From NCBI GenBank assembly GCA_963794235.1, contig CAWCCP010000011.1, positions 25,490 through 89,489 on the forward strand: a stretch of DNA of 64,000 nucleotides, read 5' to 3'. Shown one piece after another: positions 12,313-47,871 of this stretch (position 1 is its first letter; each line of letters opens with the position of its first letter). The DNA is from an uncultured bacterium. GTDB taxonomy: Bacteria; Patescibacteriota; Saccharimonadia; Saccharimonadales; UBA4665. A program made the position numbers and the translations under genes. A model generated the notes under the pieces. The model was not told the origin of the DNA, made no database searches, and worked only from the letters and a program-made list of their open reading frames with translations.

Positions 12313-13658
12313 CCTTAACAGATTGCTAAGGCTACAATGAGCGTGTACGGAGGACAACCAGTTTCGATTATTGAGGGACCTTTATATAGGTTATTTCCTG
12401 TCGTAGTTTGTTGCTTCCGAAACACTTGGTGGTAACCAGCAATAATGAGGTTATTGAGAAAAACCTTGGCATTTTATCCCTGTTCCGAACGTTGAGATCG
12501 ATCTAAGAACAAAGGGTACCAAGGCTTTTCTACAGTCAATAACGAACAAGTCTATGGTATCACCGAGGCACCTTCATTGGAAGCGATGCCACCGTACCCA
12601 ATACTAAGCTTTTGACCATGGTTCTGTTCAGTAGAGCCAGAGGGGGTGTTTGTTATGACCAAAAATACGTATGTGCTTGGCTGCGACGTATCCAAGCTAA
12701 GAATTGATGTCGCTCTGCTTGATGGGTACGGTAAAGTGCAGTGGCACGACATTGTGCCGAATGAAGTTACTGAGTTCACGGCTTATTTGTTGACGCTTCA
12801 AGGCAACTATCCCGAGACCGAGATAGAATGCGCCGTTGAAGCCACCGGACCCTATCACTATGCATTACTCGATGCTTGCCAGCATGCAGGCATACCCTGC
12901 CGGGCATTCAACCCCATTATGACCAAAGACCAGTCGAGCGTTCGAGGGAAGAAGACAGACAAGATTGACGCCATTAAGATCGCTCGCGTTGGTATGAATG
13001 GAGAGGTACCAATTTGGCGTCCTGAGCCGTATCTGACAGCAAAGACTCTGGCCCGTTCCATGCAAAAGTTGCGGAAGCTAAGCCTCTCATTAAACGCTCA
13101 CTGTAATTACCTTACGGAAACAGCCGCATTGGCTATACCGGACAGTGCCACGAAAGTAATTGAAGACATTAGGGTGTCAATTACTACTGCACATGAGCAG
13201 CTTTTTGCCGAACTTATACAAAGCACGCAAGGCAAGACCTACCAGCTATTACAGACTATTCCCGGTGTCGGTCCAATTACCGCGACCAGCGTTATTGCCG
13301 AGATTCAGGACATGAAACGCTTCACAAAAGCCTGTCGGTTGGTCGCCTATGCCGGTCTTGACTTTCCAGTTAAACAGAGTGGCGAAACATCGAGACGTGG
13401 CAAACATCTGACCAAGCGTGGCTCAAGTCACTTAAGGCGAAGCCTGTTCGTAGCCGCCAGCGTAGCTCGGCAACACGACCCATATTTCCGGTCGGTCTAC
13501 GAAAAGAAACTGAGGCGAGGGCAAGACATACAAGGCTGCGGTCATTGCCGTGGAGCGGAAACTGTTACTGGTAATACGGGCAGTGTGGCTGAGTGGTAAG
13601 GCGTATAACGGAGATTTGTTGCTCAAGGAAGCACCTTAATGAGCTTCAGATGGCTCGA
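12313..13658 (+). mobile_element. IS110-family insertion sequence (ends approximate)
   Basis: Higher-GC block inside the split kinase gene, comprising a 333-nt non-coding 5' region and a DEDD-type IS110 transposase. No terminal inverted repeats were seen, as is typical for this family. Confidence 0.7.
12646..13639 (+). CDS. IS110-family transposase (apparent frameshift near 13515-13520)
   Basis: LGCDVSK, EATGPYH, KTDKIDA, IPGVGPITA and KQSGE...G.HLTKRGSSHLR motifs. The expected C-terminus GKTYKAAVIAVERKLLLVIRAVW...* is read in the +1 frame and ends at 13639. Confidence 0.8.
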
Positions 13659-33905: not shown

Positions 33906-34901
33906 ATGAAAAACATACTTACTAACGACGACTTATTTAATCCTAAAGCACTCTTGCTTGAAAAAATTAAAGTACGAGGCGGCTGGGTTAACACGCATGC
34001 GCATATCGATCGAGCCTACATTTTAAACGAAGAGAACTTCAAATTAACCTACGCGCCATTGCAGGAAAAATGGAATTTTCCAGACGAATATAAAAGGAAA
34101 GCAACGGTTGATGATATTTATACCAATATGGCCCGTGCTATTGAGAGAATGTGCGAACAGGGAGTCCAAGCAATCGGGACATTTATAGACGTTGATCCAG
34201 TTATTGAAGACAAAGCAATTAAAGCAGCCCAAAAATTACGTGACACATTTAAGACCGATATTAAGATTAAATATATCAATCAGGTAGTAAAAGGCGTACT
34301 GGAGCCCGATGCCCGCCGTTGGTTCGATATTGGTGCTGAATTTGTCGACATAATTGGTGGTCTTCCAGAAAAAGATGCCGGTCATGAAGCCGAACATTTG
34401 GATGTGCTGTTTGAGGCAGCCAAAAAAAATGGCAACAAAATGCTACACGTTCATGTTGATCAATTTGATTTGCCAAGTCAGCGTGATACCGAACTTTTAG
34501 TTGATAAAACAATAGAGCACGGCTACCAGGAGAAGGTTGTCGCGATACACTGTATATCAGTTGCCGCGCACCCTAAAGCGTATCGAGAGAAATTATATGT
34601 AAAAATGAAAGATGCCGGTGTAATGGTTGTCACGTGCCCTGACGGATGGATCGACTGGCGACGCAGGGAAGAGCTTGCTCCCTTGCACAATTCCATTGCC
34701 CCCGTTGACGAAATGGTGCCTGCTGGTTTAACCGTCTCCCTTGGTACTGATAATATTCAAGATATCTATAAACCTTTCGTTGATGGAGATATGTGGACCG
34801 AGTTGCGCTTTCTACTTGAAACATGTCACTTTTATGATCTTGACGCACTTGCAGATATCGCGTCGGTTAACGGATTGAAAACACTTGGTATAGAAAATTA
34901 A
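33906..34901 (+). CDS. amidohydrolase, cytosine deaminase (CodA)-like
   Basis: Metal-ligand pattern NTHAHIDRAY, HVHVDQ, AIHCIS, LGTDN in the order expected for CodA-type deaminases. 331 aa. Confidence 0.6.
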   Translation: MKNILTNDDLFNPKALLLEKIKVRGGWVNTHAHIDRAYILNEENFKLTYAPLQEKWNFPDEYKRKATVDDIYTNMARAIERMCEQGVQAIGTFIDVDPVIEDKAIKAAQKLRDTFKTDIKIKYINQVVKGVLEPDARRWFDIGAEFVDIIGGLPEKDAGHEAEHLDVLFEAAKKNGNKMLHVHVDQFDLPSQRDTELLVDKTIEHGYQEKVVAIHCISVAAHPKAYREKLYVKMKDAGVMVVTCPDGWIDWRRREELAPLHNSIAPVDEMVPAGLTVSLGTDNIQDIYKPFVDGDMWTELRFLLETCHFYDLDALADIASVNGLKTLGIEN

Positions 34902-34989: not shown

Positions 34990-37239
34990 ATGCCTCACGG
35001 ACCAATATCCCCAGATGGAGTGTTGTCGCACTATCCAGATGCGACTCCACACAGTACTAACTTATCAATATCATTTCGCGCAGCTGATTTAGGTGAAGAA
35101 TTTGTACAGAGAGTTTTAACAAGAGATGAAAAATTAAGGCTTTACGGCAGAAGCGTGCTTGCACAGGCCGGAATCGATATTGCGCAGCCTACAGACGTAA
35201 TGCCGATCGTCGATGATAGTATTCTGTATGTACCGATTTCAATACAATCACATTCAACACTTGGTCATCAAATTGCAAATGACATCGGTGCAATACAGTG
35301 TGAAACTGGGCAAGGTAAGCAACTCAAGCGTCGAGATGAAGGCATTCGTTTTGGGAGATTTGTCGATTATAGCCAACTAGTACGAGTAGAAGCTGCCGAG
35401 GCAATGGACGCAACAAGAGGTTTATTGGTAGGTTTTAATGATACGATTAATGGCAACGCAAGTTCGGCCGAAAAAAGGAGGATTAATCCTGACGGATCCG
35501 TAAGTATAGGGATAAGTCCAGTCGAATTTGTTATCAACACGACAATTATGGGCTCCGATAATCGTTTTGATGCTTTACGACATGGTCGTGCAGGCCTGAT
35601 ACCCTTTATGGACAGCATTAATCATGAACCGGGCGATCCAATACCCGAATATTTAATAGGAGGAGTAATTCTGTCCTCTGGCCCTTATCATATGAACATC
35701 CGATCCGAGGGGGGTAAGGGTCGGCAAGTACCGAGTGGCAGTTTTATTGACGGAGGACGCCTGATGGGCATTGGCGAACAATTGGGAAGCTATGAAGGAC
35801 ACCGTCAGGTTGAGCTGGTTAGCCCGCAAGATGACAAACCTCCACTAACTTTTGACGAAACATCCGTTACGTTAGATTTATATCGTAACCGTGAACCGCA
35901 AGTCGGCCCACATCGCACATTCATTGATTGGCGAAGCAGCCCTGAGACCCGACGCAGGTTACATAAAACCGGTATTAGTGCTCTTGAGGTAGTGCAGGCC
36001 GCAGACCCCTCAACTCAGGAGGCATTGCTTTCATTCGTGGCAAACGATGAAGTAGCCGGTATCGTACTATCTCGTCATGGTGCAACAATTGCACCAGCAG
36101 GTGTTACATCCAAATTTAATGCCCAGAATATACGTAAGGCCGCACAAAGCGTTGGAGCAAACAGATCAATTCCACCAGAATTGAGCAGCCTGACTGGTTT
36201 CGTGACTGCTCTCGAAAATGCCGGCGATCGATCACGTATCCTTGTAGCGGATCAACTTGAAGTTAAGTATTTCCGGGGGATTGTGGATTCCGGTGACATT
36301 AGGGCAATCCTGGTACGAAACTTCGGTAATACGGCTCTGAGCAAAGAAGATCACAGTGCTTTAGTGGGTATAGTAGAGAATGGGGTATCCGTTGGTTGGT
36401 CACCTGAAGGAGACGCATACCGCGAGATGCATCGTAGCGGCTTATGGATTAAGCCCGAATTTGAAGATAGGATGGAAGATCTCGATTTAGTGGTAGCCAT
36501 GTACGGTGGAAATAAAGACTTGGTGGGAGATGCGCTCCAACCCCAAATCGACAAATTCTTTGATGGCTTAACCGCTATTGTTCCCGCTCAAAATCTGGCT
36601 GTTGCTCACGGTAGCGGCCCAGGTGTCATGAGGGTAGCCGATGAAACAGCACGCAGTAAAAATATTATGAGTCTAGGCGTGGGTATATCTGTAGAAAAGA
36701 TTGGTCAGGAAGAGAATACCCGCCCAGACGGTGTCGTTAGATTTGCTACAAGCGATCGGCTTTACCGTCAACAAATGCTTGATACCTTCAATACTATTTC
36801 AATTTTTAATGCAGGAGGCTATGGAACTTTAGAAGAAATGGCTATTTCCGTTTGCACACATAAATTACTTTCATGCCTGCCTACACCAAAAATAGCAATT
36901 GATCCCGATGGTTATTACAGGAATGCTGATCGAATGATTAGCGAAGTGGCACAACGAACAAATATACAAGCCGGTGGCGGCACCATTGATATTGCTGAGC
37001 ATCCATTTGGAGATGCTTGGGTACCGAATACATTTCATCGTGTTAAAGATTATGACCAAGCCCTCGAAATTATAAAAAAATTCACTAATGATCCTGCCGC
37101 ATATTGGCGTGAAGCTGGTATACCAGCAGAAAAAATACAAATCGCTTATGCAAGCCACCAACGTCGCTTAGCAGAAGTAGGCATGAATATTCCCACATAT
37201 ATGAGACGCGCAGCAGAGAGTTATATACAAGCAGCGTAA
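34990..37239 (+). CDS. 749-aa protein with an unknown ~480-aa N-terminal region and a C-terminal LOG/TIGR00730 (PpnN-like nucleotide nucleosidase) domain
   Basis: The C-terminal third has GSGPGVMRVADE... and NAGGYGTLEEM (PGGxGTxxE-type LOG motif) followed by DPDGYYRN. No motif was recognised in the N-terminal part. Confidence 0.6.
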   Translation: MPHGPISPDGVLSHYPDATPHSTNLSISFRAADLGEEFVQRVLTRDEKLRLYGRSVLAQAGIDIAQPTDVMPIVDDSILYVPISIQSHSTLGHQIANDIGAIQCETGQGKQLKRRDEGIRFGRFVDYSQLVRVEAAEAMDATRGLLVGFNDTINGNASSAEKRRINPDGSVSIGISPVEFVINTTIMGSDNRFDALRHGRAGLIPFMDSINHEPGDPIPEYLIGGVILSSGPYHMNIRSEGGKGRQVPSGSFIDGGRLMGIGEQLGSYEGHRQVELVSPQDDKPPLTFDETSVTLDLYRNREPQVGPHRTFIDWRSSPETRRRLHKTGISALEVVQAADPSTQEALLSFVANDEVAGIVLSRHGATIAPAGVTSKFNAQNIRKAAQSVGANRSIPPELSSLTGFVTALENAGDRSRILVADQLEVKYFRGIVDSGDIRAILVRNFGNTALSKEDHSALVGIVENGVSVGWSPEGDAYREMHRSGLWIKPEFEDRMEDLDLVVAMYGGNKDLVGDALQPQIDKFFDGLTAIVPAQNLAVAHGSGPGVMRVADETARSKNIMSLGVGISVEKIGQEENTRPDGVVRFATSDRLYRQQMLDTFNTISIFNAGGYGTLEEMAISVCTHKLLSCLPTPKIAIDPDGYYRNADRMISEVAQRTNIQAGGGTIDIAEHPFGDAWVPNTFHRVKDYDQALEIIKKFTNDPAAYWREAGIPAEKIQIAYASHQRRLAEVGMNIPTYMRRAAESYIQAA

Positions 37240-37369
37240 AATATTTATTACTATTTTATAAAATGCACAGTGGGTTTAGTAGATAAAATATTCGGACACT
37301 ATAGTTAATTATGTTAACTATTACCTAAAGAACGGGTATACTTATAAATAGTAATGGGTATACATAATC

Positions 37370-38443
37370 ATGCACGTGCATTCAATCTCTAAGCTAAAGA
37401 TAACAAAACGAGGCATCCAGATTGCATTAGGCTTATTATGGCTCTTAGATGGAGCGCTACAACTTCAACATCAAATGTTTAGCAGTGCGTTCGCAACACA
37501 AGTGATCGCGCCGGCTGGTCAGGGTCAACCGATTCCAGTGTATGGACCAATCAATTTCGAAATTCATATGCTGCTTTTACACCCCGCTCTCTATGACATG
37601 TTATTCGCGCTTGTTCAGCTCGCACTCGGAGTACTTATCTTACATAAAAAGACATCACAACTTGGGTTACGGACATCAGTTATTTGGGGATTTGCAGTCT
37701 GGTACTTAGGAGAGGGTATGGGAGGCTTGCTAAGTGGCCAGACTTCTGTTCTCATGGGCGCGCCGGGCGCGGCATTGATATATGCACTACTTGCTCTTGC
37801 TGTATTGCCAAGTAAAGAAAGAAAAGAATCAGATAGCAAAGATAAACCAGCTAGTTGGCTCCCAATAGTTTGGGCTGTTTTATGGTTCGTTGGGGCAATC
37901 TACCAGTTATTACCAGGCCAAAATTCGATTTCAGACCTATCCTCATCGATCGCAGCCAATGCTGGCAATGGCGCTCCTGGATGGCTAAGTTCAGTAGATA
38001 TTCACGTGTCAAATATCATAGCAGGCTTCGGGAAAAACGCTGCGATGAATACCAAGATGAAAGGCATGACTATGTCAAATGGCCAAATGGGACAATTTGC
38101 ACTTCAGACTCATCACAGTTCCGGGCTCTGGTTTATTATCTTGCTCGCTGCGATACAAGCCGCTATCGGTTTAATGGTGTTCTTACCACGCATATACAAA
38201 ATAACCGTAATATATATAGGTATAGCGCTATCACTCTTGTTCTGGTTGATTGGCCAAAGTCTTGGTGCGTACTTTTCCGGACTTGCGACCGATCCGAATA
38301 CGGCACCACTTATTATATTGCTCGGGGTGGCAGTTTTAGGGACAGATCGACTAAACTTCAAACGACTAAAAAACGGAATTAAAAATGCGGTGCAGTGGAT
38401 TGATAACGAGCTCGGTAATCGTCCAGTTATAAAAGCTCAGTAA
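37370..38443 (+). CDS. multi-pass membrane protein, hypothetical
   Basis: 357 aa with about 8 TM segments. The alternative-frame track ORF 37855-38382 was rejected. Confidence 0.6.
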   Translation: MHVHSISKLKITKRGIQIALGLLWLLDGALQLQHQMFSSAFATQVIAPAGQGQPIPVYGPINFEIHMLLLHPALYDMLFALVQLALGVLILHKKTSQLGLRTSVIWGFAVWYLGEGMGGLLSGQTSVLMGAPGAALIYALLALAVLPSKERKESDSKDKPASWLPIVWAVLWFVGAIYQLLPGQNSISDLSSSIAANAGNGAPGWLSSVDIHVSNIIAGFGKNAAMNTKMKGMTMSNGQMGQFALQTHHSSGLWFIILLAAIQAAIGLMVFLPRIYKITVIYIGIALSLLFWLIGQSLGAYFSGLATDPNTAPLIILLGVAVLGTDRLNFKRLKNGIKNAVQWIDNELGNRPVIKAQ

Positions 38444-38610
38444 ATGCATGCACTTTCATTAAAGCTAGCGTAAGAATGTATGCTCTTAATTATTATGCTG
38501 TAAGCATGATTTTTTACGCTCAATCAGATGGGTTATATTTCATTGTAAGCAGCTCGATTATGTAGTAGCTTTAATTCATAAACACTTAACGTAATACGAC
38601 GGGGAGAAGA

Positions 38611-40311
38611 ATGGTTCACCAAAAACAACAACTCAAACCGCTCGCTAAAGCACCTACCGGCATTGCTGGGTTGGATGAGATTACTATCGGTGGTTTTCCC
38701 AAAGGCAGGCCAACGTTAGTTGCAGGTAATGCAGGATGTGGCAAGACTTTGCTCGCGATGGAGTTTCTTGTTAATGGAGTGACAGAATATAATGAACCGG
38801 GCGTATTTATGTCTTTTGAAGAGTCAAAGTTCGACTTATCACAAAATGTCGCCTCACTCGGCTATGATCTTGAAAAGCTTATTAAACAAAAGAAACTTGC
38901 AATTGATCATGTTGAAATCGAGCGCCACGAAATCGAGGAAACAGGAGCCTATGATCTTGAAGGTTTATTTATACGAATGGGCCATGCCATCGATTCAATC
39001 AAAGCAAACCGCCTGGTACTTGACACCATCGAGTCGCTTTTTGGTGGTTTTCAAGATGATACTATTTTACGCGCCGAGCTACGTCGACTCTTTCGGTGGT
39101 TAAAGACCAAAGGCATAACAACGCTAATTACAGGAGAACGAGGGGAAAAGACGCTTACGAGGCAAGGGCTCGAGGAATATGTTTCGGATTGCGTAATCCT
39201 GCTTGATCATCGTGTTGAAGACCAAAATTCTACAAGAAGACTACGAGTCGTAAAGTATCGCGGCTCAAGCCACGGTACAAATGAATACCCATTCTTAATA
39301 GATGAAGATGGCATTACAATTATGCCAATCACCTCGCTTAAGCTCGACAAAGTCGTTTCCACAAAACGAATCTCCTCAGGTATCCCCGAACTCGATAGTA
39401 TGACAGGTGGTGGTTTCTATAAAGGCTCGAATATTTTACTATCCGGTACGGCCGGTACAGGTAAAACAAGTGTTGCCGTATATCTTGCCGATTCAGCCTG
39501 TAAACGAGGAGAGCGAGTGTTATTTATTGCATTTGAAGAATCCCCGGCTCAAATAGTACGAAACGCTCGATCGATCGGTATCGAATTACAGAAACACATT
39601 GATAGAGGCCTATTAAGATTTGAAGCATCTCGTTCAACTTCTCTGGGGCTAGAGATGCAACTCGCTACAATTTATAAGCATGTAGAGCAATTCGACCCAC
39701 AAGTAGTTATTGTTGATCCCATTACAAATCTAATAACAACTGGCAACGTGATTGAAGTTCGATCAATGCTCGGCCGATTAATGGACATGCTTAAGGAGAA
39801 AAAAGCCACCGCACTTTTTACTTCACTTACGCAAGGCGGTGCTAACCTTGAGCAAACAGAGTATGGTGTTTCTTCATTTGTAGATACATGGTTATTGCTA
39901 CGTGATATCGAATCCAATGGCGAGCGCAACAGGGTAATACATGTCTTAAAGTCGAGGGGGACAAACCATTCGAATCAAGTCCGAGAATTTATTATTAGTG
40001 ATAACGGCATACAACTAGTTGATGTATACATCGGAGCTGCTGGCACGCTAACTGGATCTGCTCGAGTCGTGCAAATTGCCCGGGATGAATCCGATGCAGC
40101 CCTGCAGCGCGACAATTTAGCAAGTAAACGACACAAAATTGAAAATAGACAACGCATATTAAAGGCAAAGATCGCTAATCTAACTGAGGAATTAACCAGC
40201 GAGGCTGAGGAGCTTGAAGAACTAGAATACCTTGAGAACGAACGAAACGTCGCAATTGAAAATGAGCGTTCAGTCCTAAAAACATCACGCAGTAGGGGAA
40301 CGAATGAATAA
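38611..40311 (+). CDS. kaiC: KaiC-family double RecA-like ATPase with extended coiled-coil C-terminus
   Basis: Two Walker A motifs ([16 protein letters not shown]) and catalytic EE pairs (SFEES, AFEES). [12 protein letters not shown] aligns with HISTITDTIILL, the phosphosite region of cyanobacterial KaiC. 566 aa. Confidence 0.9.
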
Positions 40312-40591
40312 AGCAGACTACCAATTACGTCTATATGTCGCAGGTCAAACACCTAAATCAATGCTCGCGCTCAGAAACCTAAAGCGCTACTGTGAAGAAC
40401 ACCTTAAAGATCAGTACACCATTGAAGTTATAGATCTCCTTAAAAATCCTCAATTAGCTGCTGGGGATCAAATTATTGCTGTTCCAACACTCGTGAGAAA
40501 AGTACCCCAACCAATTCGAAAAATCATTGGTGATTTATCAAATGAGCAAAAAGTTCTCGTTGGATTAGATTTAAGAGAGTTAAAGCCTTGA
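40304..40591 (+). CDS. kaiB: KaiB (copy 1)
   Basis: [12 protein letters not shown]...[51 protein letters not shown] is near-canonical KaiB. Confidence 0.9.
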
Positions 40592-40878
40592 AAAACACTA
40601 AGAAATTTATACTAAAACTCTACGTGTCGGGAGCAACGCCTCATTCGACGAGAGCCGTAAAAAGCGTTACATCAATTTGTGAAGAACATATTAAAGATGA
40701 TTACTCTTTGGAAATTATCGATATCTATCAAAGGCCCGAATTTGCCAAGCAAGATGATATTATTGCCGTTCCAACGCTCCTAAAATGCAAGCCAGAACCT
40801 ATGCGTCGTTTGATTGGTGATATGTCACGAGAAGAAAAAGTTTTAACAGGACTCGACCTTAAAGGTTTTACAGATTAA
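40588..40878 (+). CDS. kaiB: KaiB (copy 2)
   Basis: [12 protein letters not shown]...[49 protein letters not shown]. It overlaps copy 1 by 4 nt. Confidence 0.9.
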
Positions 40879-40881
40879 GCG

Positions 40882-42066
40882 ATGGTTCATAAATCTCACA
40901 CCATGACCGAGGAAGATATAGCTGAACTTCAGGCTCGACTTCGAGAAGCCGAAGACACACTCGAAGCAATTCGTTCAGGCGCTATTGATGCCATCGTGGT
41001 AGAGGGAAAAAATCAGCAGCAAATCTTTACACTTAAATCGGCGGATTATACCTATCGAATGCTTATTGAGTCAATGAATCAAGGGGCGATAACAATCAGC
41101 GAAGACGGTACTATACTTTACAGTAATCGGCAATTTGGTAACATGATAGGCGTTCCGCTCGAACAGATTATTGGGACACAAATCCAAGATTACATAATTG
41201 CAAGTAATCGCCCGCAACTTATGAATCTCATTAATAAACCAAGCCTGCGTGATCAAGAGTTAACGCTGCAAATTGATCGATCGCCATTTATGGCCGTTAT
41301 GATCTCAGCCACTAAATTACCACATGAGGACTCAACTGCTTACATGTACATGGTCATTACAGACGTCACAGAACGAAAGAAAGCTGAAGATGCAAAGGAT
41401 GAGTTTATTTCGCTCGCTTCTCACCAGTTACGCACCCCAGCAACCGGTGTTAAGCAATATCTTGGAATGCTGCTTGAAGGCTATGCAGGAGAACTTTCCG
41501 AAAAGAATAGGCTTTTCATCAAGACCGCCTATGATAGTAATGAAAGACAACTCACAATAATTAACGACATACTGAAAACTGCGCAAATAGACTCAGGTAT
41601 GTATGAGTTGAGCAAAGCACCAGAAAATATCGCAAGTATTATCGACAAAGTCATTGAGGAATATTCCCCGATTTTTAATAGTCGCGAACAAAAAATTCAT
41701 TTTGATTCCGATAGGGATTTAATTAGCAATGTCGATAGAGATGAACTAAGTTTAGCAATCTCTAATATCGTAGAAAACGCAAGCAAATACTCTCCGAAAG
41801 GTAGCATAATTTCTGTTATGGTATATCGAAAAGATGGGCTTGTGTGCATAGACATTAAAGATCAGGGAGTAGGTATAGCCGAAGCTGATAAGGGACATAT
41901 TTTTGATAAATTTACACGGATAGACAATGCATTATCTGATACCGTAAGTGGAAGTGGACTTGGGTTATACTGGGTGAAGCGAATAATTAAAATGCATGAC
42001 GGTGAGATAATTATAAAATCTTCACCAAATCACGGATCAATCTTTACGATTTGTTTACCAGCATGA
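40882..42066 (+). CDS. PAS-domain sensor histidine kinase
   Basis: N-terminal coiled coil, a PAS-like region, H-box FISLASHQLRTPAT, and HATPase_c motifs (NASKYSP, DQGVGI, GSGLGL). Confidence 0.85.
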   Translation: MVHKSHTMTEEDIAELQARLREAEDTLEAIRSGAIDAIVVEGKNQQQIFTLKSADYTYRMLIESMNQGAITISEDGTILYSNRQFGNMIGVPLEQIIGTQIQDYIIASNRPQLMNLINKPSLRDQELTLQIDRSPFMAVMISATKLPHEDSTAYMYMVITDVTERKKAEDAKDEFISLASHQLRTPATGVKQYLGMLLEGYAGELSEKNRLFIKTAYDSNERQLTIINDILKTAQIDSGMYELSKAPENIASIIDKVIEEYSPIFNSREQKIHFDSDRDLISNVDRDELSLAISNIVENASKYSPKGSIISVMVYRKDGLVCIDIKDQGVGIAEADKGHIFDKFTRIDNALSDTVSGSGLGLYWVKRIIKMHDGEIIIKSSPNHGSIFTICLPA

Positions 42067-42443
42067 ATACGTTAAAAACAATATTTGTAGTCGAAGATGA
42101 AACGATCCTAAGAGATGCCTATAAAATTATTCTTACAAGCAAAGGTTATCGGGTTGAGACTGCAGCAAATGGGCTGAGCGCTCTCCAACTTTTAAATCAT
42201 ATCGAGCCTGATTTAATTCTCTTAGATTTACTGATGCCAGTCATGGGCGGCAAGGATTTTTTAATTGAAGCTAACATGGCAGTCCGCCATCCAAAAGTAA
42301 AAGTTATAGTCTATAGTAATTTGTCCGACTCAGACACGATCAACCAGGTGATTGAGCTTGGAGTTGACCAGCATGTGCTTAAATCGAGTATGTCTCCTAA
42401 TAACCTTGTCGAGTATGTTGATAGCTTATTATCGCGAAAATAA
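42063..42443 (+). CDS. single-domain response regulator (CheY-like receiver)
   Basis: IFVVEDE...PDLILLDLLMPVMGG...VIVYSNL. Its ATG overlaps the kinase stop (ATGA). Confidence 0.85.
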   Translation: MNTLKTIFVVEDETILRDAYKIILTSKGYRVETAANGLSALQLLNHIEPDLILLDLLMPVMGGKDFLIEANMAVRHPKVKVIVYSNLSDSDTINQVIELGVDQHVLKSSMSPNNLVEYVDSLLSRK

Positions 42444-42482: not shown

Positions 42483-42947
42483 TTAGATCTTATCCTGGAG
42501 GGTCTTCAAATCTTTTATAATATCACTAGCATGCGTTTGCGGATCGGCATGTATATATTTTTTCACGATATGACTTTCAGGATCAATTATAAACGTATTT
42601 CGTTCAACACCCATAAACTCCTTACCGTTATAATTCTTCGATTTCCACGAATCATATGCCTCAATTACAGCATGTTCGGGGTCGCTCAGGAGCGTGAAGT
42701 TAAGCTGGTATTTATCAACGAAAGACTTGTGCGAATCAACTGAATCCTGACTTACGCCCACTACTTCCGCCCCACCTAGTTCAGTAATAACTTCTCGAGC
42801 ATCTCTAAAATTACACGCCTCCGTTGTGCATCCAGCTGTATCATCTTTAGGATAAAAATAAAGTACTAGCCATTTTCCCTTATACTCATTAAGTGTATGA
42901 AAAATGCCATTCTGGTCGGCTAGATTAAAATCATAAGCTTGTTCCAT
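42483..42947 (-). CDS. bcp: thiol peroxidase Bcp (peroxiredoxin Q type)
   Basis: WLVLYFYPKDDTAGCTTEAC active-site motif. Confidence 0.85.
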   Translation of the reverse strand: MEQAYDFNLADQNGIFHTLNEYKGKWLVLYFYPKDDTAGCTTEACNFRDAREVITELGGAEVVGVSQDSVDSHKSFVDKYQLNFTLLSDPEHAVIEAYDSWKSKNYNGKEFMGVERNTFIIDPESHIVKKYIHADPQTHASDIIKDLKTLQDKI

Positions 42948-42994
42948 GTATGTTCTCCTTAAAAATATTTGTTAAATATTAACAATTCGTTTCG

Positions 42995-45193
42995 CTAATT
43001 AATCGGTTGTCTAATCTTAGGCGGAGCGCTTACATGATGAGCGTGAATAGGTTGCCGGGGAGGCAAGGGATTATCGGGATGATGAGGCGGTTCAATATGG
43101 TTCCGTTTCGGGCGATGCCCGGGCCACCATATTGCGTATCCAATGAGAGCTGACAAACTTGGAATAAGGAACGGAGCAATTACAAACGCTGCAAGGATAA
43201 CCCCGATTGCTATTGCGCTCCCCATTTGTGAAAGAAAGCTTATGCCTGCAAGAAGCAATGAACCAAACGTCGCTGCAAGAATAAGTCCCGCGGATGCAAC
43301 CGTAGCACTGCTATGTTCTACTGCAAGGTCAGCTGCTTTGCGCGGCGAATGTCCCTCTTGAATCTCTTCTCTTAAACGAGTAATAGTTAGAATATTATAG
43401 TCAGTTCCGATCGCGACAACGAAAATATACATAAATAATGGAATGAAAAATATCAGTCCTGGAGCATTTCCGATGCGTAAAAAGATTAAGGTAGTTGCTC
43501 CAAGTGTTGCAATATATCCAAGGCCTACACAAAGTAACAAGAAGACAGGTGCTACTAAACTTCTAAGAAGGAGTGCCAAAATTATAAAGATAAATACCCC
43601 TGCAATAGGGAATATAACCTTAAGATCACGATTTGTGACAGCCTTTATATCCGCCAAGACTGCCGTACTACCACCAACATAGACCCGTGCATTTGGAATT
43701 GGAACCGAATGTGCTGCCTCATGTATCGGCCCTGCGACATTACTTATTGCTAAAGCACTCGATGGGTCACTAGCCAGAATTACTGATACGATAGCAATCT
43801 TGCCACCTGGAGCAATAACGACCGGTTGCACACTAGCGATTCCGGTCGTATGTACAAGTCGTTGTCGCAAAGGTGTAATTTCCTTCCGGTTAAGCTTGCT
43901 TGTACTTGTTATATAAATTTGCGTGGGTTCAAGAACACCTGCTGGAAATGCACTAACAAGTTCGTTGTAGCCTGTTGCTGATTCGGTATTCTTTGGAGGT
44001 TGAGAAAATGAGCTAAAATCAGGTTTATATCCAAGAGCAGAAACCCCTAAAGCTATCAACAATACTAAAACAGCACCGACCATCCTGGCAGGATGACGAG
44101 CAATCATGCCACCAATTTTTTTCGAAAATGTAGGATTAAGAGACTTACTCTTCCATGCTTTACTGGGCCAGAATACTTTTTCTTGTACGACGGCAACTAG
44201 TGCCGGAATAAGCGTTAAGGCAGCCAACATCATTACAAAAACACAAATGACCAAACTTGGCGCCATAGACGAAAAAATACCGAACTTAGCAAAGAACAGT
44301 GCAGAGAATGAAGTCAGGACAACAAGGGCAGCAGATAAAATTGCAAGTCCTGCGCGACTTAGTGCAAACGTCACAGCTTCACGGCTGTGATCACCGCTTC
44401 GCAAACGCTCGCGGTACCGAAAGAGTAGGAAAAGTATATAATCAGTACCGATACCGAATAAGACAACGGTAAATATAACACTTAACTGCTGACTGACGAC
44501 AAAATTAAAGGTTTTAGCAGCGTCTGCAATTAATGCGTTAGCTATTAAGCTAACGACTCCAACGGATACAATTGGCAAGAGCCCTGCAAAAGGACTTCGA
44601 AAAATTAGGGCCGGCAATATTAATACTAGGAGTAATGTTCCGATACCGACGATTTTTAGCGCCTTTTCTGATTCCCCTTGAGTATCATAACTAATTGCTT
44701 CTTCTCCCGTGACTGCAACTTTAAGGTTGGTTCCATCTGTCTGTTCACTGAAGCTATCGCGTACAGTCTTAACGGCATCAATAGTAGCCGTGTCCTGAGC
44801 ATTGCCAGAATATGTTATTTGTGCAAGCTGTACTTTTCGATTTGGAGCAAGTTGTCGGCTACTCGTTGTAACTGAAAGTATGTGGGATAGGTGTTCAGCT
44901 GATATGGTATCAACAACTTTGCTTATAAGTTGAGAATCGGCTTTTGTAAGTACCGTGCCAGATGTATTCGTAAATACAGCTGAATCGATGGCATCTTGGC
45001 TATTTGGTGATACCTTTTTCGCAATATTAATTGCTTCGACCGATTCGTAGCCTTTAGGAAGAAAACTACTCTGATTATTACTTTCGACACTGCTTAAACT
45101 CGGCGAGAGAGAAACAATGACGATTGCAGCAACTATCCATATTGCAATAACCCGCTTTCTTCTTTTAACGATTAATCGGCTAAATTTCTCCAT
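42995..45193 (-). CDS. MMPL-family (RND superfamily) transporter
   Basis: 732 aa with two 6-TM bundles, GTDYILFLLFRYRE and GTDYNILTITRLREE motifs, and a Pro-rich tail. Confidence 0.85.
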   Translation of the reverse strand: MEKFSRLIVKRRKRVIAIWIVAAIVIVSLSPSLSSVESNNQSSFLPKGYESVEAINIAKKVSPNSQDAIDSAVFTNTSGTVLTKADSQLISKVVDTISAEHLSHILSVTTSSRQLAPNRKVQLAQITYSGNAQDTATIDAVKTVRDSFSEQTDGTNLKVAVTGEEAISYDTQGESEKALKIVGIGTLLLVLILPALIFRSPFAGLLPIVSVGVVSLIANALIADAAKTFNFVVSQQLSVIFTVVLFGIGTDYILFLLFRYRERLRSGDHSREAVTFALSRAGLAILSAALVVLTSFSALFFAKFGIFSSMAPSLVICVFVMMLAALTLIPALVAVVQEKVFWPSKAWKSKSLNPTFSKKIGGMIARHPARMVGAVLVLLIALGVSALGYKPDFSSFSQPPKNTESATGYNELVSAFPAGVLEPTQIYITSTSKLNRKEITPLRQRLVHTTGIASVQPVVIAPGGKIAIVSVILASDPSSALAISNVAGPIHEAAHSVPIPNARVYVGGSTAVLADIKAVTNRDLKVIFPIAGVFIFIILALLLRSLVAPVFLLLCVGLGYIATLGATTLIFLRIGNAPGLIFFIPLFMYIFVVAIGTDYNILTITRLREEIQEGHSPRKAADLAVEHSSATVASAGLILAATFGSLLLAGISFLSQMGSAIAIGVILAAFVIAPFLIPSLSALIGYAIWWPGHRPKRNHIEPPHHPDNPLPPRQPIHAHHVSAPPKIRQPIN

Positions 45194-45632
45194 ATTTTTC
45201 CTTTCGAACTGTTACGTATTTTTGGCTTACTTTTTCGACAAGTTGAACAAGAGTGTCCAATTCCAGATCACTTAGCTCAGTAAATATCTCGTTAAGAATC
45301 TTTGTTTTTGCATGTCTTAATTCTCTATAAATATCCCACCCTTTTTCGGTCATTTTTAATATAACCTCACGACGATTCTGAAGATTCATTTCTCGAATCA
45401 GTAAACCTGCTTTTTCCAACGCATCTACGTGCTGCGTGGCGGCACCGGACGTGACACAGAGAATCCTTGCAAGTTGCTTGATTCCCACGTCACCAGTCTG
45501 CATGCCAACAACAATCAACGCATGATTTTGAGCAGGCGAGCAGCCAGAATAGTGTAAGGTATCGTCGTGCATGCCTTTACTAATCGCAAACATACTATCT
45601 TCAAGCCGGTTGAGTAAAGCTTCTCGATTCAT
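45180..45632 (-). CDS. MarR-family regulator
   Basis: wHTH core (GIKQLARILCVTSGAATQHVDALEKAGLIRE). It overlaps the MMPL start. Confidence 0.8.
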   Translation of the reverse strand: MNREALLNRLEDSMFAISKGMHDDTLHYSGCSPAQNHALIVVGMQTGDVGIKQLARILCVTSGAATQHVDALEKAGLLIREMNLQNRREVILKMTEKGWDIYRELRHAKTKILNEIFTELSDLELDTLVQLVEKVSQKYVTVRKEKYGEI

Positions 45633-45701
45633 ATTAGATACTAAATAGTTTAGCTGCTAATAAATTAAAGTCAAACATAGGTTCTTATTTGTTATGATTT
45701 A

Positions 45702-46384
45702 ATGCCTAGGAAAGTACTCGTATATTTTGTTAAAATATCTATATCAAACAAGATCCTAAATTACCGATATCCAATACAAGCGACTCTCGAAAACTAACGC
45801 GAAAAGAATTAGCAATTTTAATCCTCGCGATTCTTATTCTGCTCGGTTTAGGCTTCGTAAACCACTGGTCTATACTCCAGCACACCGCATTAAAAGCACT
45901 ATCTACTGAACGGCTGACCACAACGAAAACTAATCCAAACAAAGTATACACAATACCAAAATCTAAAGTTACCAATAACCAGATCTACGTTATAATACCG
46001 CAGCTTTCCATATCATTTTATCTGCCAAGCACTTTTCAAAATCTGGTATATATAACCAAAGACCTCCCTGGAGAGAATAGCAAACCAAATCCTGCTGCCT
46101 ATTTCTCGACCAGCTCACTTGCTCAAATTGATAGTGGATGTAATGCTCAATCAGCACCGCTCGGAGCGCTAGTAAAGATGAATGGTACCTATCCTGTTAA
46201 TAATCCGAATGCGGTTCAAAATTATGGCATTCTCATAAAACAATTTAATTCATTTTATATATCGGCTGCGTATCAACAAAAAGGTTGCGCTCACAACAGT
46301 CTTGATAGTGCGGACTCACTTGCTGAAACTGAGGCTCCTATTTTCTTGAATGCCGTTCACACGACTATACGTACCACCGACTAA
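45702..46384 (+). CDS. membrane-anchored secreted protein, hypothetical (probable indel in A4 run 45732-45735)
   Basis: The frame is open from 45734 to 46384 (...RKELAILILAILILLGLGFVNHW...) with no start codon. ATG 45702 (MPRKVLVYFVK) joins it if the A-run has one more A. The track shows only 46178-46384. Confidence 0.45.
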
Positions 46385-46404
46385 ATCTCGTATGTTTACA
46401 TGCA

Positions 46405-47871
46405 TTATTGAATGGTAGATTTGATCATACGTTCCGCATTTCTACGTGCTGTATTTTTTGCCCAGGTTCCTGTCGTCAAGACTCCGAGAACTAAAATAAT
46501 AAACCCCGATGCTGCAACAAGATCCCAGCTCACTCGATATGCCGCATTAAATCCGCTACCAGCCCTTAAGCTGGTTACGTGTGATGCGATTACCGTTCCG
46601 ATAATAGCCACCCCAAGCGTTTGACCTAATTGTCTCATTGTCGATGTGATACCAGCAGCTACGCCAGCTTGATCACGCGGCATACCCGATAGAGCTGTAT
46701 TACTTATGGCCGTGTTAATAAAACCGATGCCGATGCCAATTAATGCATATATACAATAGAGCAATATGCCTGTGGCATTTTTATGCAGTAAGGCCGCGAC
46801 CAAACCGGCACAGATAATACTCGTTCCACCAAGTAATAACGAGGGCCTTGGACCAAATTTACCAACAATTCTTCCCGAAAGAGGACCTATAATCGCCATC
46901 ATTGCTGGCATAGGTAAAATTGCAAGTCCGGCCTGAAGAGGTGAAAAATGTCGAATATCTTGGAGGTAAAATGTGTTAAGCAATAAGAAGCCGCCTTGAG
47001 CAATAAATGTACAGACCGCAATAGCAGTAGCACCGCTAAATGGTGCTGATCGGAAAAATCGCATATCAAGCAACGGTTGTCTATGCTGTAATTCGTACAA
47101 AATCAAACCAAAAAGACTTATTGCTGAGCCAACCAAACAGGACAATATATGAAAAGATAACCACCCATGGGTCGGGGCTTCAATTATGCCATAAATGAGC
47201 AAGCCTAAAGTACTGATTATAAGCACCTGACCTATAGGATCAATATGTCGAGGTTTGGCAGCTTTTGATTCAGGCACAAATTTACGAGCAAGTAAAAATG
47301 CAACGAGGCCAATCGGAACATTTATCCAAAAGATAGCCCGCCATCCGATCGACTCTACCAGAGCTCCTCCGAGCAAAGGCCCTACCGCAATGCTAATTCC
47401 AATCACACCGCCCCAAATACCGATTGCCCGAGCTCTCATTTTGGGATCAATAAAAGTGTTGGTTATAATTGAAAGTGCAACTGGGTTCAACATGCTACCT
47501 CCAACTGCTTGAAACATCCGAAAAAATATTAAAAACGACAGATTCGGAGCTAGGCTGCAGAGTAGGGAGCCTAGAGAAAATACACTAAGTCCAATTTGAA
47601 ATACTTTCCGACGTCCAATACGATCAGCAGTCGATGCTGAAACCATCAATAAACAAGAGAGAACCAGTGTATATGCATCAAGTGTCCATTGAGCTCCGGA
47701 GATTGAAGCCTTGAGCTCGTGCTGTATTGAAGGAAGTGCGACATTGAGTACGCTCGCATCCATACCCACAATAAAAATGCTCGTGCAGCAAATTGCAAGT
47801 ATTAAGCCACGTCTAACAGGTTGAACTGAAACGTTTTGAGACATTTCGGCATGATTTAATGTAGAAGCCAA
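46405..47871 (-). CDS. MFS transporter, DHA2 family
   Basis: 488 aa with 14 predicted TMs and the DRIGRRKVF motif. Confidence 0.85.
   Translation of the reverse strand: MASTLNHAEMSQNVSVQPVRRGLILAICCTSIFIVGMDASVLNVALPSIQHELKASISGAQWTLDAYTLVLSCLLMVSASTADRIGRRKVFQIGLSVFSLGSLLCSLAPNLSFLIFFRMFQAVGGSMLNPVALSIITNTFIDPKMRARAIGIWGGVIGISIAVGPLLGGALVESIGWRAIFWINVPIGLVAFLLARKFVPESKAAKPRHIDPIGQVLIISTLGLLIYGIIEAPTHGWLSFHILSCLVGSAISLFGLILYELQHRQPLLDMRFFRSAPFSGATAIAVCTFIAQGGFLLLNTFYLQDIRHFSPLQAGLAILPMPAMMAIIGPLSGRIVGKFGPRPSLLLGGTSIICAGLVAALLHKNATGILLYCIYALIGIGIGFINTAISNTALSGMPRDQAGVAAGITSTMRQLGQTLGVAIIGTVIASHVTSLRAGSGFNAAYRVSWDLVAASGFIILVLGVLTTGTWAKNTARRNAERMIKSTIQ

Follow-up and report, generated by a model that had tools for sequence, protein, structure and literature searches.

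What would a bacterium of the Saccharimonadales do with a set of clock proteins that lacks KaiA? The question is raised by five genes, kaiC-kaiB-kaiB-kinase-receiver, at positions 38611 to 42443 of the forward (+) strand in a 64-kb stretch of contig CAWCCP010000011.1 (the window), which a sequence-only reading had described as a tightly packed or overlapping cluster of Rhodobacter-like architecture. The answer that we consider probable is that the cluster is one operon, encoding a KaiA-independent KaiBC module of the KaiC2 type together with its own two-component output, and working by a mechanism that can be carried over from Rhodobacter.

The open reading frames (ORFs) of the five genes were found where that reading had placed them, and every domain call was borne out by Pfam and NCBIfam: two KaiC ATPase domains, two KaiB domains, the PAS, HisKA and HATPase_c domains of the kinase, and Response_reg. 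Neighbouring genes overlap at three of the four junctions, by 8 nucleotides (nt; ATGA type) between kaiC and the first kaiB, by 4 nt (TTGA) between the two kaiBs and by 4 nt (ATGA) between kinase and receiver, and 3 nt separate the second kaiB from the kinase; since the genes overlap or nearly touch, they form one translationally coupled operon. A Shine-Dalgarno-like GGGGAG (38601-38606, +) can be read 4 nt 5′ of the kaiC ATG. The most likely start of the receiver is ATG 42063 and not TTG 42051, because the former makes an ATGA junction with the kinase stop; two independent gene callers also choose it. For the second kaiB, a TTG start is backed by an N-terminus that is conserved among its orthologs, and the alternative call of 84 residues would delete strand β1. 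A consensus scan recovered no sigma-70-like promoter above background upstream of kaiC (8 promoter-like sites, 11.3 expected) and no terminators. The GC content of the operon is that of its surroundings. Against a 78%-identical sister contig the ratio of nonsynonymous to synonymous differences (pN/pS) lies between 0.11 and 0.19 across all five genes, the receiver having the lowest value (0.11) and the class-II kaiB, defined below, the highest (0.19). Because these ratios are low while synonymous sites are saturated (pS ~0.8), all five genes are maintained by purifying selection.

The first of them, kaiC (38611-40311, +), encodes a double P-loop ATPase and autokinase of 566 residues that matches PF06745 twice (E = 1e-116). 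Its Walker A motifs are GNAGCGKT at 39-46 in the CI domain and GTAGTGKT at 279-286 in CII, its catalytic Glu-Glu pairs are at 70-71 and 309-310, and a GVSS motif contains S421 and S422; all these residues, which the sequence-only reading had picked out, are the same in each of 30 aligned homologs, whose overall identities are 59-78%. The closest solved structure is the KaiC dodecamer of Rhodobacter sphaeroides, 8DBA (E = 4e-184, 616 bits), which aligns over residues 11-545, tail included, while 8ZN5 scores 397 bits and the cyanobacterial KaiC1 structures about 335. The protein passes NF006799 of NCBIfam (728 bits, cutoff 408), fails the cyanobacterial equivalog TIGR02655 (353 bits, cutoff 546) and obtains 82 bits, against a cutoff of 403, with the RadA family TIGR00416. 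Because 8DBA and NF006799 score high and the other two families fail, we assign this KaiC by its profile scores to the KaiC2 type; it is neither a KaiC1 nor a RadA-like ATPase, in agreement with the KaiC2-type architecture proposed earlier. The predicted phosphorylation sites S421 and S422 (codons 39871-39876, +), which had been placed at the position of cyanobacterial S431/T432, align exactly with the engineered glutamates S413E/S414E of the phosphomimetic 8FWI chain, that is, with S413/S414 of Rhodobacter KaiC (RsKaiC).

The C-terminal tail, which had been put at about 100 residues, comprises the 97 residues after the motif at 458-469. Alignments to cyanobacterial KaiC1 structures end at residue 488 of 566 here and at residue 498 of 519 in Synechococcus KaiC; therefore the tail is about 57 residues longer than in the latter, an excess that fits the published figure of about 50. 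Residues 486-556 (40066-40278, +), the predicted coiled-coil stalk for hexamer-hexamer pairing, show zero gaps across the 30 homologs, and in the window sequence they include no proline and are 40% charged. The columns in which at least 70% of the family has Leu, Ile, Val, Met or Phe are 503, 510, 516, 521, 524, 528, 535, 538 and 556. Core positions are sparse, often one per heptad, and Fourier tests (given below) were null; for these reasons the register was tested on the conserved columns, eight out of nine of which share a single a/d heptad register (permutation p = 4.4e-4). The alignment to the RsKaiC coiled coil is ungapped, and most of the conserved hydrophobic columns have Leu or Ile in the Rhodobacter tail, which in the crystal is a 12-helix coiled-coil bundle (PMC10076222). 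Homology and the conserved register together predict that the tail is a coiled coil, as the sequence-only reading had supposed.

That reading had also reported the lack of KaiA. With a single-sequence query (Synechococcus KaiA, its sequence checked against PDB 5N8Y), phmmer --max and tblastn detected no KaiA in six frames of the window, 64 kb of the genome, or in the loci fetched from about 85 relatives, the best E value being about 0.6. No Pfam KaiA domain occurs in the two genes upstream of kaiC or in the receiver. KaiA3, a receiver-KaiA chimera of about 300 residues, occurs with KaiB3 and KaiC3, not with KaiC2 (PMC11372060); the receiver of the window, with 126 residues and Response_reg alone, was ruled out as a KaiA3-like protein.

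The two KaiB proteins require a broader comparison. The first (40304-40591, +; 95 residues) and the second (40588-40878, +; 96 residues, TTG start) match PF07689 with 94.7 bits (E = 3e-27) and 85.0 bits (E = 3e-24), respectively, the cutoff being 27 bits; both score slightly under the cyanobacterial equivalog cutoffs, and they are 48-51% identical to each other. The best PDB match of the first is Rhodobacter KaiB (RsKaiB), 8FWJ_M (6e-30), of which it is the orthologous type, while the second is the more divergent paralogue. For the comparison, GTDB species representatives were scanned with the KaiC alignment, the best 80 of 594 matches were taken, and their six-frame ORFs were searched with the window proteins; there are no Saccharimonadales genomes among these 80. 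Where the locus extended far enough downstream of kaiC, two kaiB genes were present in 53 of 72 cases, one in 18 and none in 1; the 74% share of two-kaiB loci describes these 80 best-matching representatives and not all KaiC2 systems, Alphaproteobacteria such as Rhodobacter being outside the sample. Loci with two kaiBs belong to Bacteroidota, Planctomycetota, Pseudomonadota, Acidobacteriota, Nitrospira, Verrucomicrobiota, Candidatus Nealsonbacteria and the archaeon Methanoperedens.

A neighbour-joining (NJ) tree of 142 KaiB sequences splits almost perfectly along gene position. On one side (class I) are 58 of 59 first copies, 17 of 21 single copies, the Rhodobacter KaiB and the first KaiB of the window; on the other (class II) are 57 of 58 second copies, including those of other phyla, and the second KaiB of the window. 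The tree carries no bootstrap values, and cross-validation was used in their place: hidden Markov models (HMMs) of first and second copies, built from half of the loci, gave the right class in the other half for 98.3% of the first and 93.3% of the second copies, the margin having a median of 33 bits. Class I has a mean within-class identity of about 66% and the motifs YVAGQTPKS...VIDLLxNPQLA...PTLVRK...RKIIGDLS; class II is about 50% identical internally and 46% to class I, with YVtGATxxS...IIDIYQxPElA...PTLIK...RRLIGDMS. Core KaiB motifs are common to both KaiBs, and the class-specific residues concentrate directly after strand β2 (VIDLLxN in class I, IIDIYQx in class II) and in one further motif. 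In cyanobacteria it is the β2 edge of fold-switched KaiB that recruits KaiA and CikA. Both window KaiBs keep the Gly and Asp of the fold-switch positions (G-L-D), residues that reportedly have a role in the switch, where Rhodobacter KaiB has Asn and Lys. Mutation at these positions locks cyanobacterial KaiB in the fold-switched state (PMC5520375), as Chang et al. 2015 also reportedly showed. A moderately confident AlphaFold2 (AF2) model of KaiB-I (predicted local distance difference test, pLDDT, 73) ends in a β-strand and is closer to ground-state KaiB crystals (TM-score, a template modelling score, 0.68-0.73) than to fold-switched ones (0.38-0.45); the depth of the alignments for the two window KaiBs was matched at three sequences, each KaiB being aligned with one ortholog from each of two sister genomes, the same two for both.

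The sequence-only reading had treated the second kaiB as a duplication within this genome. Two tandem kaiBs are indeed present, but they are not special to it: because the copies split by position across many phyla, the tandem is, by this comparison, an old and common arrangement of two ancient classes in fixed order and not a local duplication. The single-KaiB arrangement of Rhodobacter type is the minority among the sampled relatives (18/72). In the literature that we found, the tandem is mentioned only as 'kaiCBB', in the genome report of Thiodictyon syntrophicum (PMC5944118), and the readable surveys and mechanistic papers treat KaiB2 as one type; among the homolog matches listed, 3 of 120 are class II. 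Two sequences depart from the usual pattern. An ENA protein of 163 residues (P0248) runs in frame from a class-I KaiB into a class-II start; it could be a genuine fusion, or else an artefact of a frameshift or of assembly. A single locus (L033, 7527-8200) has an apparently inverted order, class II first, also in the cross-validation; its first ORF is an over-long stop-to-stop frame, possibly an artefact of ORF calling.

On the output side, the kinase (40882-42066, +; 394 residues) consists of an N-terminal helix followed by PAS, HisKA and HATPase domains, with the motifs H181 (HisKA), N299, D327xGxG and G357xGxG (HATPase); it contains no transmembrane-like segment and is, as far as its sequence indicates, soluble. 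The stand-alone receiver (42063-42443, +; 126 residues; PF00072, E = 1e-21) has a complete phospho-acceptor pocket (E11/D12, D55, S85 and K107). Among the relatives, 58 of 63 loci have an effector, such as a kinase, no more than 2.5 kb downstream, and in 71 of 73 the first gene 3′ of kaiB aligns with the window kinase from its N-terminus. The part that these genes share is a helix of about 30 residues and then a PAS domain, with the family consensus L..E...L...L.EAE.T..AIR.G.VDA.VV....G.Q.YTL..AD..YR.LIE.M.EGA.TL; in the window this Kai-associated helix-PAS module corresponds to kinase residues 1-170 (40882-41391, +) and contains AIRSGAIDAIVV. A profile of the pre-PAS helix (residues 1-57) finds 74 matches in all the fetched DNA, 72 immediately 3′ of kaiB and the other 2 also adjacent to Kai genes, whereas generic PAS or kinase-core profiles also match 14-15 unrelated proteins of the same loci. 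What lies behind the module varies: HisKA-HATPase in the window, HisKA_2 in Methanoperedens, HisKA_3 in a metagenome-assembled genome (MAG) of Opitutaceae, PAS-GGDEF-EAL in Rhodoferax, a PAS-GAF-HD_5 protein of HD-GYP type in a Chloroflexia MAG, and only a short coiled coil in Bacteroidales. On the natural reading of this gene neighbourhood, the helix-PAS module would be what reads the state of KaiC/KaiB, and lineages would have exchanged the output behind it. Few loci besides the window and its sister contigs have a stand-alone receiver straight after the kinase.

The idea that the helix-PAS module depends on KaiB-II as an obligatory adaptor was weighed too and is disfavoured, since single-kaiB loci retain the module. 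Two unusual loci were met among the relatives. In Candidatus Methanoperedens nitroreducens (L056, 8440-9894) the two kaiB genes are followed by a receiver-containing protein of 485 residues and no kinase, and a deltaproteobacterial MAG (L019, 5935-10600) has two kaiC-kaiB clusters back to back.

The relatives of the window enolase are named almost exclusively Candidatus Saccharimonadales, Saccharibacteria or Patescibacteria, and its two best matches (83% and 81%) share contigs of 186 kb and 59 kb with the two best matches of KaiC (78% and 75%). In an NJ tree of KaiC, made without bootstrap and indicative only, the window protein shares a clade with all the KaiCs that bear a Saccharimonadales or Patescibacteria label, and the adjoining Bacteroidota are the nearest relatives outside the candidate phyla radiation (CPR). 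Because the enolase and KaiC relatives belong to these groups, a host with a reduced genome, within the Saccharimonadales (CPR), is a fair inference, which upholds the reduced genome of the sequence-only reading. The order kaiC-kaiB-kaiB-kinase recurs in the sister genomes and in a named Saccharimonadales MAG, and on these alignments the cluster appears to have been retained within the order through considerable divergence, down to about 62% KaiC identity. A Candidatus Nealsonbacteria MAG (L050) represents a second CPR lineage with kaiC-kaiB-kaiB and a helix-PAS gene; in the NJ tree, which has no support values, its KaiC groups with Bacteroidales outside the Saccharimonadales clade, suggesting a separate acquisition.

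Set against the known Kai systems, the locus most resembles the KaiBC hourglass of Rhodobacter sphaeroides (8DBA, 8FWI, 8FWJ; Pitsawong et al. 2023), as had been claimed: the two have in common an extension of about 50 residues, Ser-Ser phosphosites, the catalytic residues, the lack of KaiA, a first KaiB of the same type and an operon-linked PAS histidine kinase. Only the window has a stand-alone receiver and, between the first kaiB and the kinase gene, a class-II kaiB, the Rhodobacter KaiB being of class-I type only; the fold-switch residues of KaiB-I differ as described, and the hosts are a CPR bacterium and a phototroph. KaiABC of Synechococcus elongatus, with SasA and CikA, is alike in its double-domain KaiC, the Pfam family of its KaiB and an output through histidine kinase and response regulator; the window differs in lacking KaiA, failing TIGR02655, having Ser-Ser instead of Ser-Thr and a longer, coiled-coil tail, and in the input to its kinase, which is helix-PAS here and a KaiB-like domain in SasA. 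By similarity the proteins belong to the same KaiC2/KaiB2 subgroup as those of Synechocystis KaiC2-KaiB2 and of the Bacteroidetes systems with KaiB2 and KaiC2 only (Schmelling et al. 2017, PMC5520375), where KaiB2 is one type, whereas second-position KaiBs form a separate class here. The Legionella pneumophila KaiBC operon is likewise KaiA-less and found in a non-photosynthetic, host-associated bacterium, and its KaiB (Lpp1115, PDB 4KUN) is distant from both window KaiBs (62 and 56 bits, against 107 for RsKaiB). The 'kaiCBB' of Thiodictyon syntrophicum Cad16T (PMC5944118) has the same gene order, and its adjacent diguanylate cyclase matches the GGDEF-EAL output variants found here; the genome report mentions the arrangement without analysing the two KaiBs or the partner module. 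Judged by these comparisons, the locus is an ordinary member of the widespread KaiC2-type KaiBC family (hourglass or energy-state switch).

These likenesses allow a mechanism to be proposed by analogy. In Rhodobacter a coiled coil pairs the KaiC hexamers, the A-loop is exposed and autophosphorylation proceeds without KaiA; the ATP:ADP ratio drives the system, which has no free-running rhythm (Pitsawong et al. 2023, PMC10076222). In the window the coiled coil of the tail would similarly join two KaiC hexamers and keep the A-loop exposed, and with the A-loop so held KaiC would autophosphorylate, at S421 and S422, with no need of KaiA. Fold-switched class-I KaiB would bind the CI ring and boost the ATPase, with dephosphorylation as ATP:ADP drops, making the system an hourglass or a delayed energy-state switch that is reset externally. 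From the comparative genomics, the N-terminal helix-PAS of the kinase may sense the state of the KaiC/KaiB complex and thereby control whether H181 passes its phosphate to D55 of the single-domain receiver, which once phosphorylated would act through protein-protein contacts. Class-II KaiB, as an ancient and conserved extra part, would most likely modulate the binding of KaiB-I to KaiC or couple the complex to the helix-PAS partner.

Several points weigh against this view. The mechanism is carried over from one studied homolog, at about 60% identity, which has only a class-I-type KaiB, and a second KaiB could alter the dynamics; nor would KaiB-II be needed to attach the helix-PAS partner, which single-kaiB relatives keep. 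KaiB-I has residues of the G89/D91 type that are absent from RsKaiB, so that it may rest in a different state. The AF2 model of KaiB-II, from its three-sequence alignment, has a pLDDT of 46 (33-37 in the C-terminal half), too poor for use. A 3.5-residue periodicity of the KaiC tail was not significant by Fourier analysis, either in the single sequence (p = 0.13) or in the family profile (p = 0.37). Finally, daily timing is of no obvious need to a non-photosynthetic episymbiont. The timing behaviour is inferred, and readings of the module as a timer and as a reporter of energy or stress overlap.

The surroundings of the operon bear on some of the alternatives. Directly 3′ of it, and convergent with it, is a block of genes for a Bcp/AhpC peroxiredoxin, an MMPL transporter, a MarR regulator and an MFS (major facilitator superfamily) transporter (42483-47871, −), which is syntenic in the sister contig and not in a more distant Saccharimonadales MAG. 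On the 5′ side, between an amidohydrolase gene (33906-34901) and kaiC, the window has two genes (34990-38443, +) in addition to those of the sister contig L002: one encodes a protein of 749 residues with a C-terminal LOG/SLOG 'Lysine_decarbox' match, and the other a multi-pass membrane protein of 357 residues with no Pfam match. An IS110-family transposase (DEDD_Tnp_IS110 and Transposase_20; 12646-13599, +) lies about 25 kb from the operon. Over roughly its first 20 kb the window has markedly fewer long ORFs than elsewhere. The sole Rfam match in the window is a full-length LOOT RNA (RF03000; 3226-3350, −; 72 bits, gathering score 46.4), and no tRNAs were found in its 64 kb.

The alternative that survives best holds that the same proteins act as a stress or energy-state switch and not as a timer, KaiC phosphorylation reporting the ATP:ADP ratio or the redox state through the PAS kinase; we consider this possible, though on the whole unlikely. 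It suits a non-photosynthetic CPR host and a partner module that is a PAS domain, typically a sensor of redox or ligands. Such a role has been proposed for KaiBC of Legionella pneumophila, whose kai operon is reported to affect resistance to oxidative and salt stress and to show no circadian behaviour (Loza-Correa et al. 2014), but the two KaiBs here are only distantly related to the Legionella KaiB. The convergent peroxiredoxin-MMPL-MarR block would also fit, in as far as it is syntenic in the sister genome, although this neighbourhood is not kept in the more distant Saccharimonadales MAG. That the Rhodobacter system itself is driven by ATP:ADP and lacks a free-running rhythm (PMC10076222) also speaks for the switch, which largely overlaps the hourglass model and does not exclude it.

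A second alternative assigns to class-II KaiB a behaviour that is qualitatively unlike the Rhodobacter hourglass: it would play the part of the KaiB-like domain of SasA, through cooperative loading of, or competition on, the CI ring, or would substitute for KaiA, so that the four-part system sustains or sharpens an oscillation. The two classes in fixed order at 53 of 72 loci in many phyla, the purifying selection on class II, the accuracy with which position predicts class (98% of first and 93% of second copies) and the clustering of class-specific residues after strand β2 all speak for a distinct role. The lineages with a single KaiB keep the partner module, however, so that the second KaiB would be dispensable for the basic circuit; the core motifs are the same in both KaiBs and the AF2 model of KaiB-II is uninformative, and we judge this alternative improbable. 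That the cluster is a recently transferred, decaying passenger without function is very improbable indeed: KaiBC is patchily distributed, the position of the KaiC clade beside Bacteroidota in the NJ tree fits an old transfer and a transposase lies ~25 kb away, but the five ORFs are intact with their catalytic residues, pN/pS is 0.11-0.19 against the 78%-identical sister, the cluster and its flanking synteny are common to sister contigs with orthologous enolase, and the GC content is like that of the surroundings.

Reading the cluster as a KaiA-independent KaiBC module with its own two-component output, we note that it passes the sequence-level tests for a KaiC2-type system and so adds little by itself. 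Its interest lies in the host and in the family. A complete and selected KaiBC two-component module is now placed in the Saccharimonadales, which have very small genomes and are thought to be host-dependent; the searchable literature yielded no account of Kai proteins from CPR bacteria. For the family, a second class of KaiB, in fixed gene order, has so far received only a passing mention ('kaiCBB', PMC5944118), and the likely output interface of KaiC2 systems is the helix-PAS module, which occurs almost only beside kaiB, fused to kinases, to enzymes of cyclic di-GMP or to nothing, and which offers defined constructs for testing the output route. The general lead is that most of the long-tailed KaiC systems sampled have, besides a dedicated helix-PAS partner, a second class of KaiB that is as yet unstudied. 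A bolder view, doubtful as we see it, is that the common long-tailed KaiC system comprises KaiC, KaiB-I, KaiB-II and a helix-PAS effector, of which the single-KaiB form of Rhodobacter is a reduced version, and that KaiB-II, by loading of or competition on the CI ring or by bridging to the effector, has a distinct role that changes the dynamics towards sharper switching or a sustained KaiA-free rhythm. If this were true, the retention of all the parts in an episymbiont genome of about 1 Mb would imply that the module times or gates host-dependent physiology.

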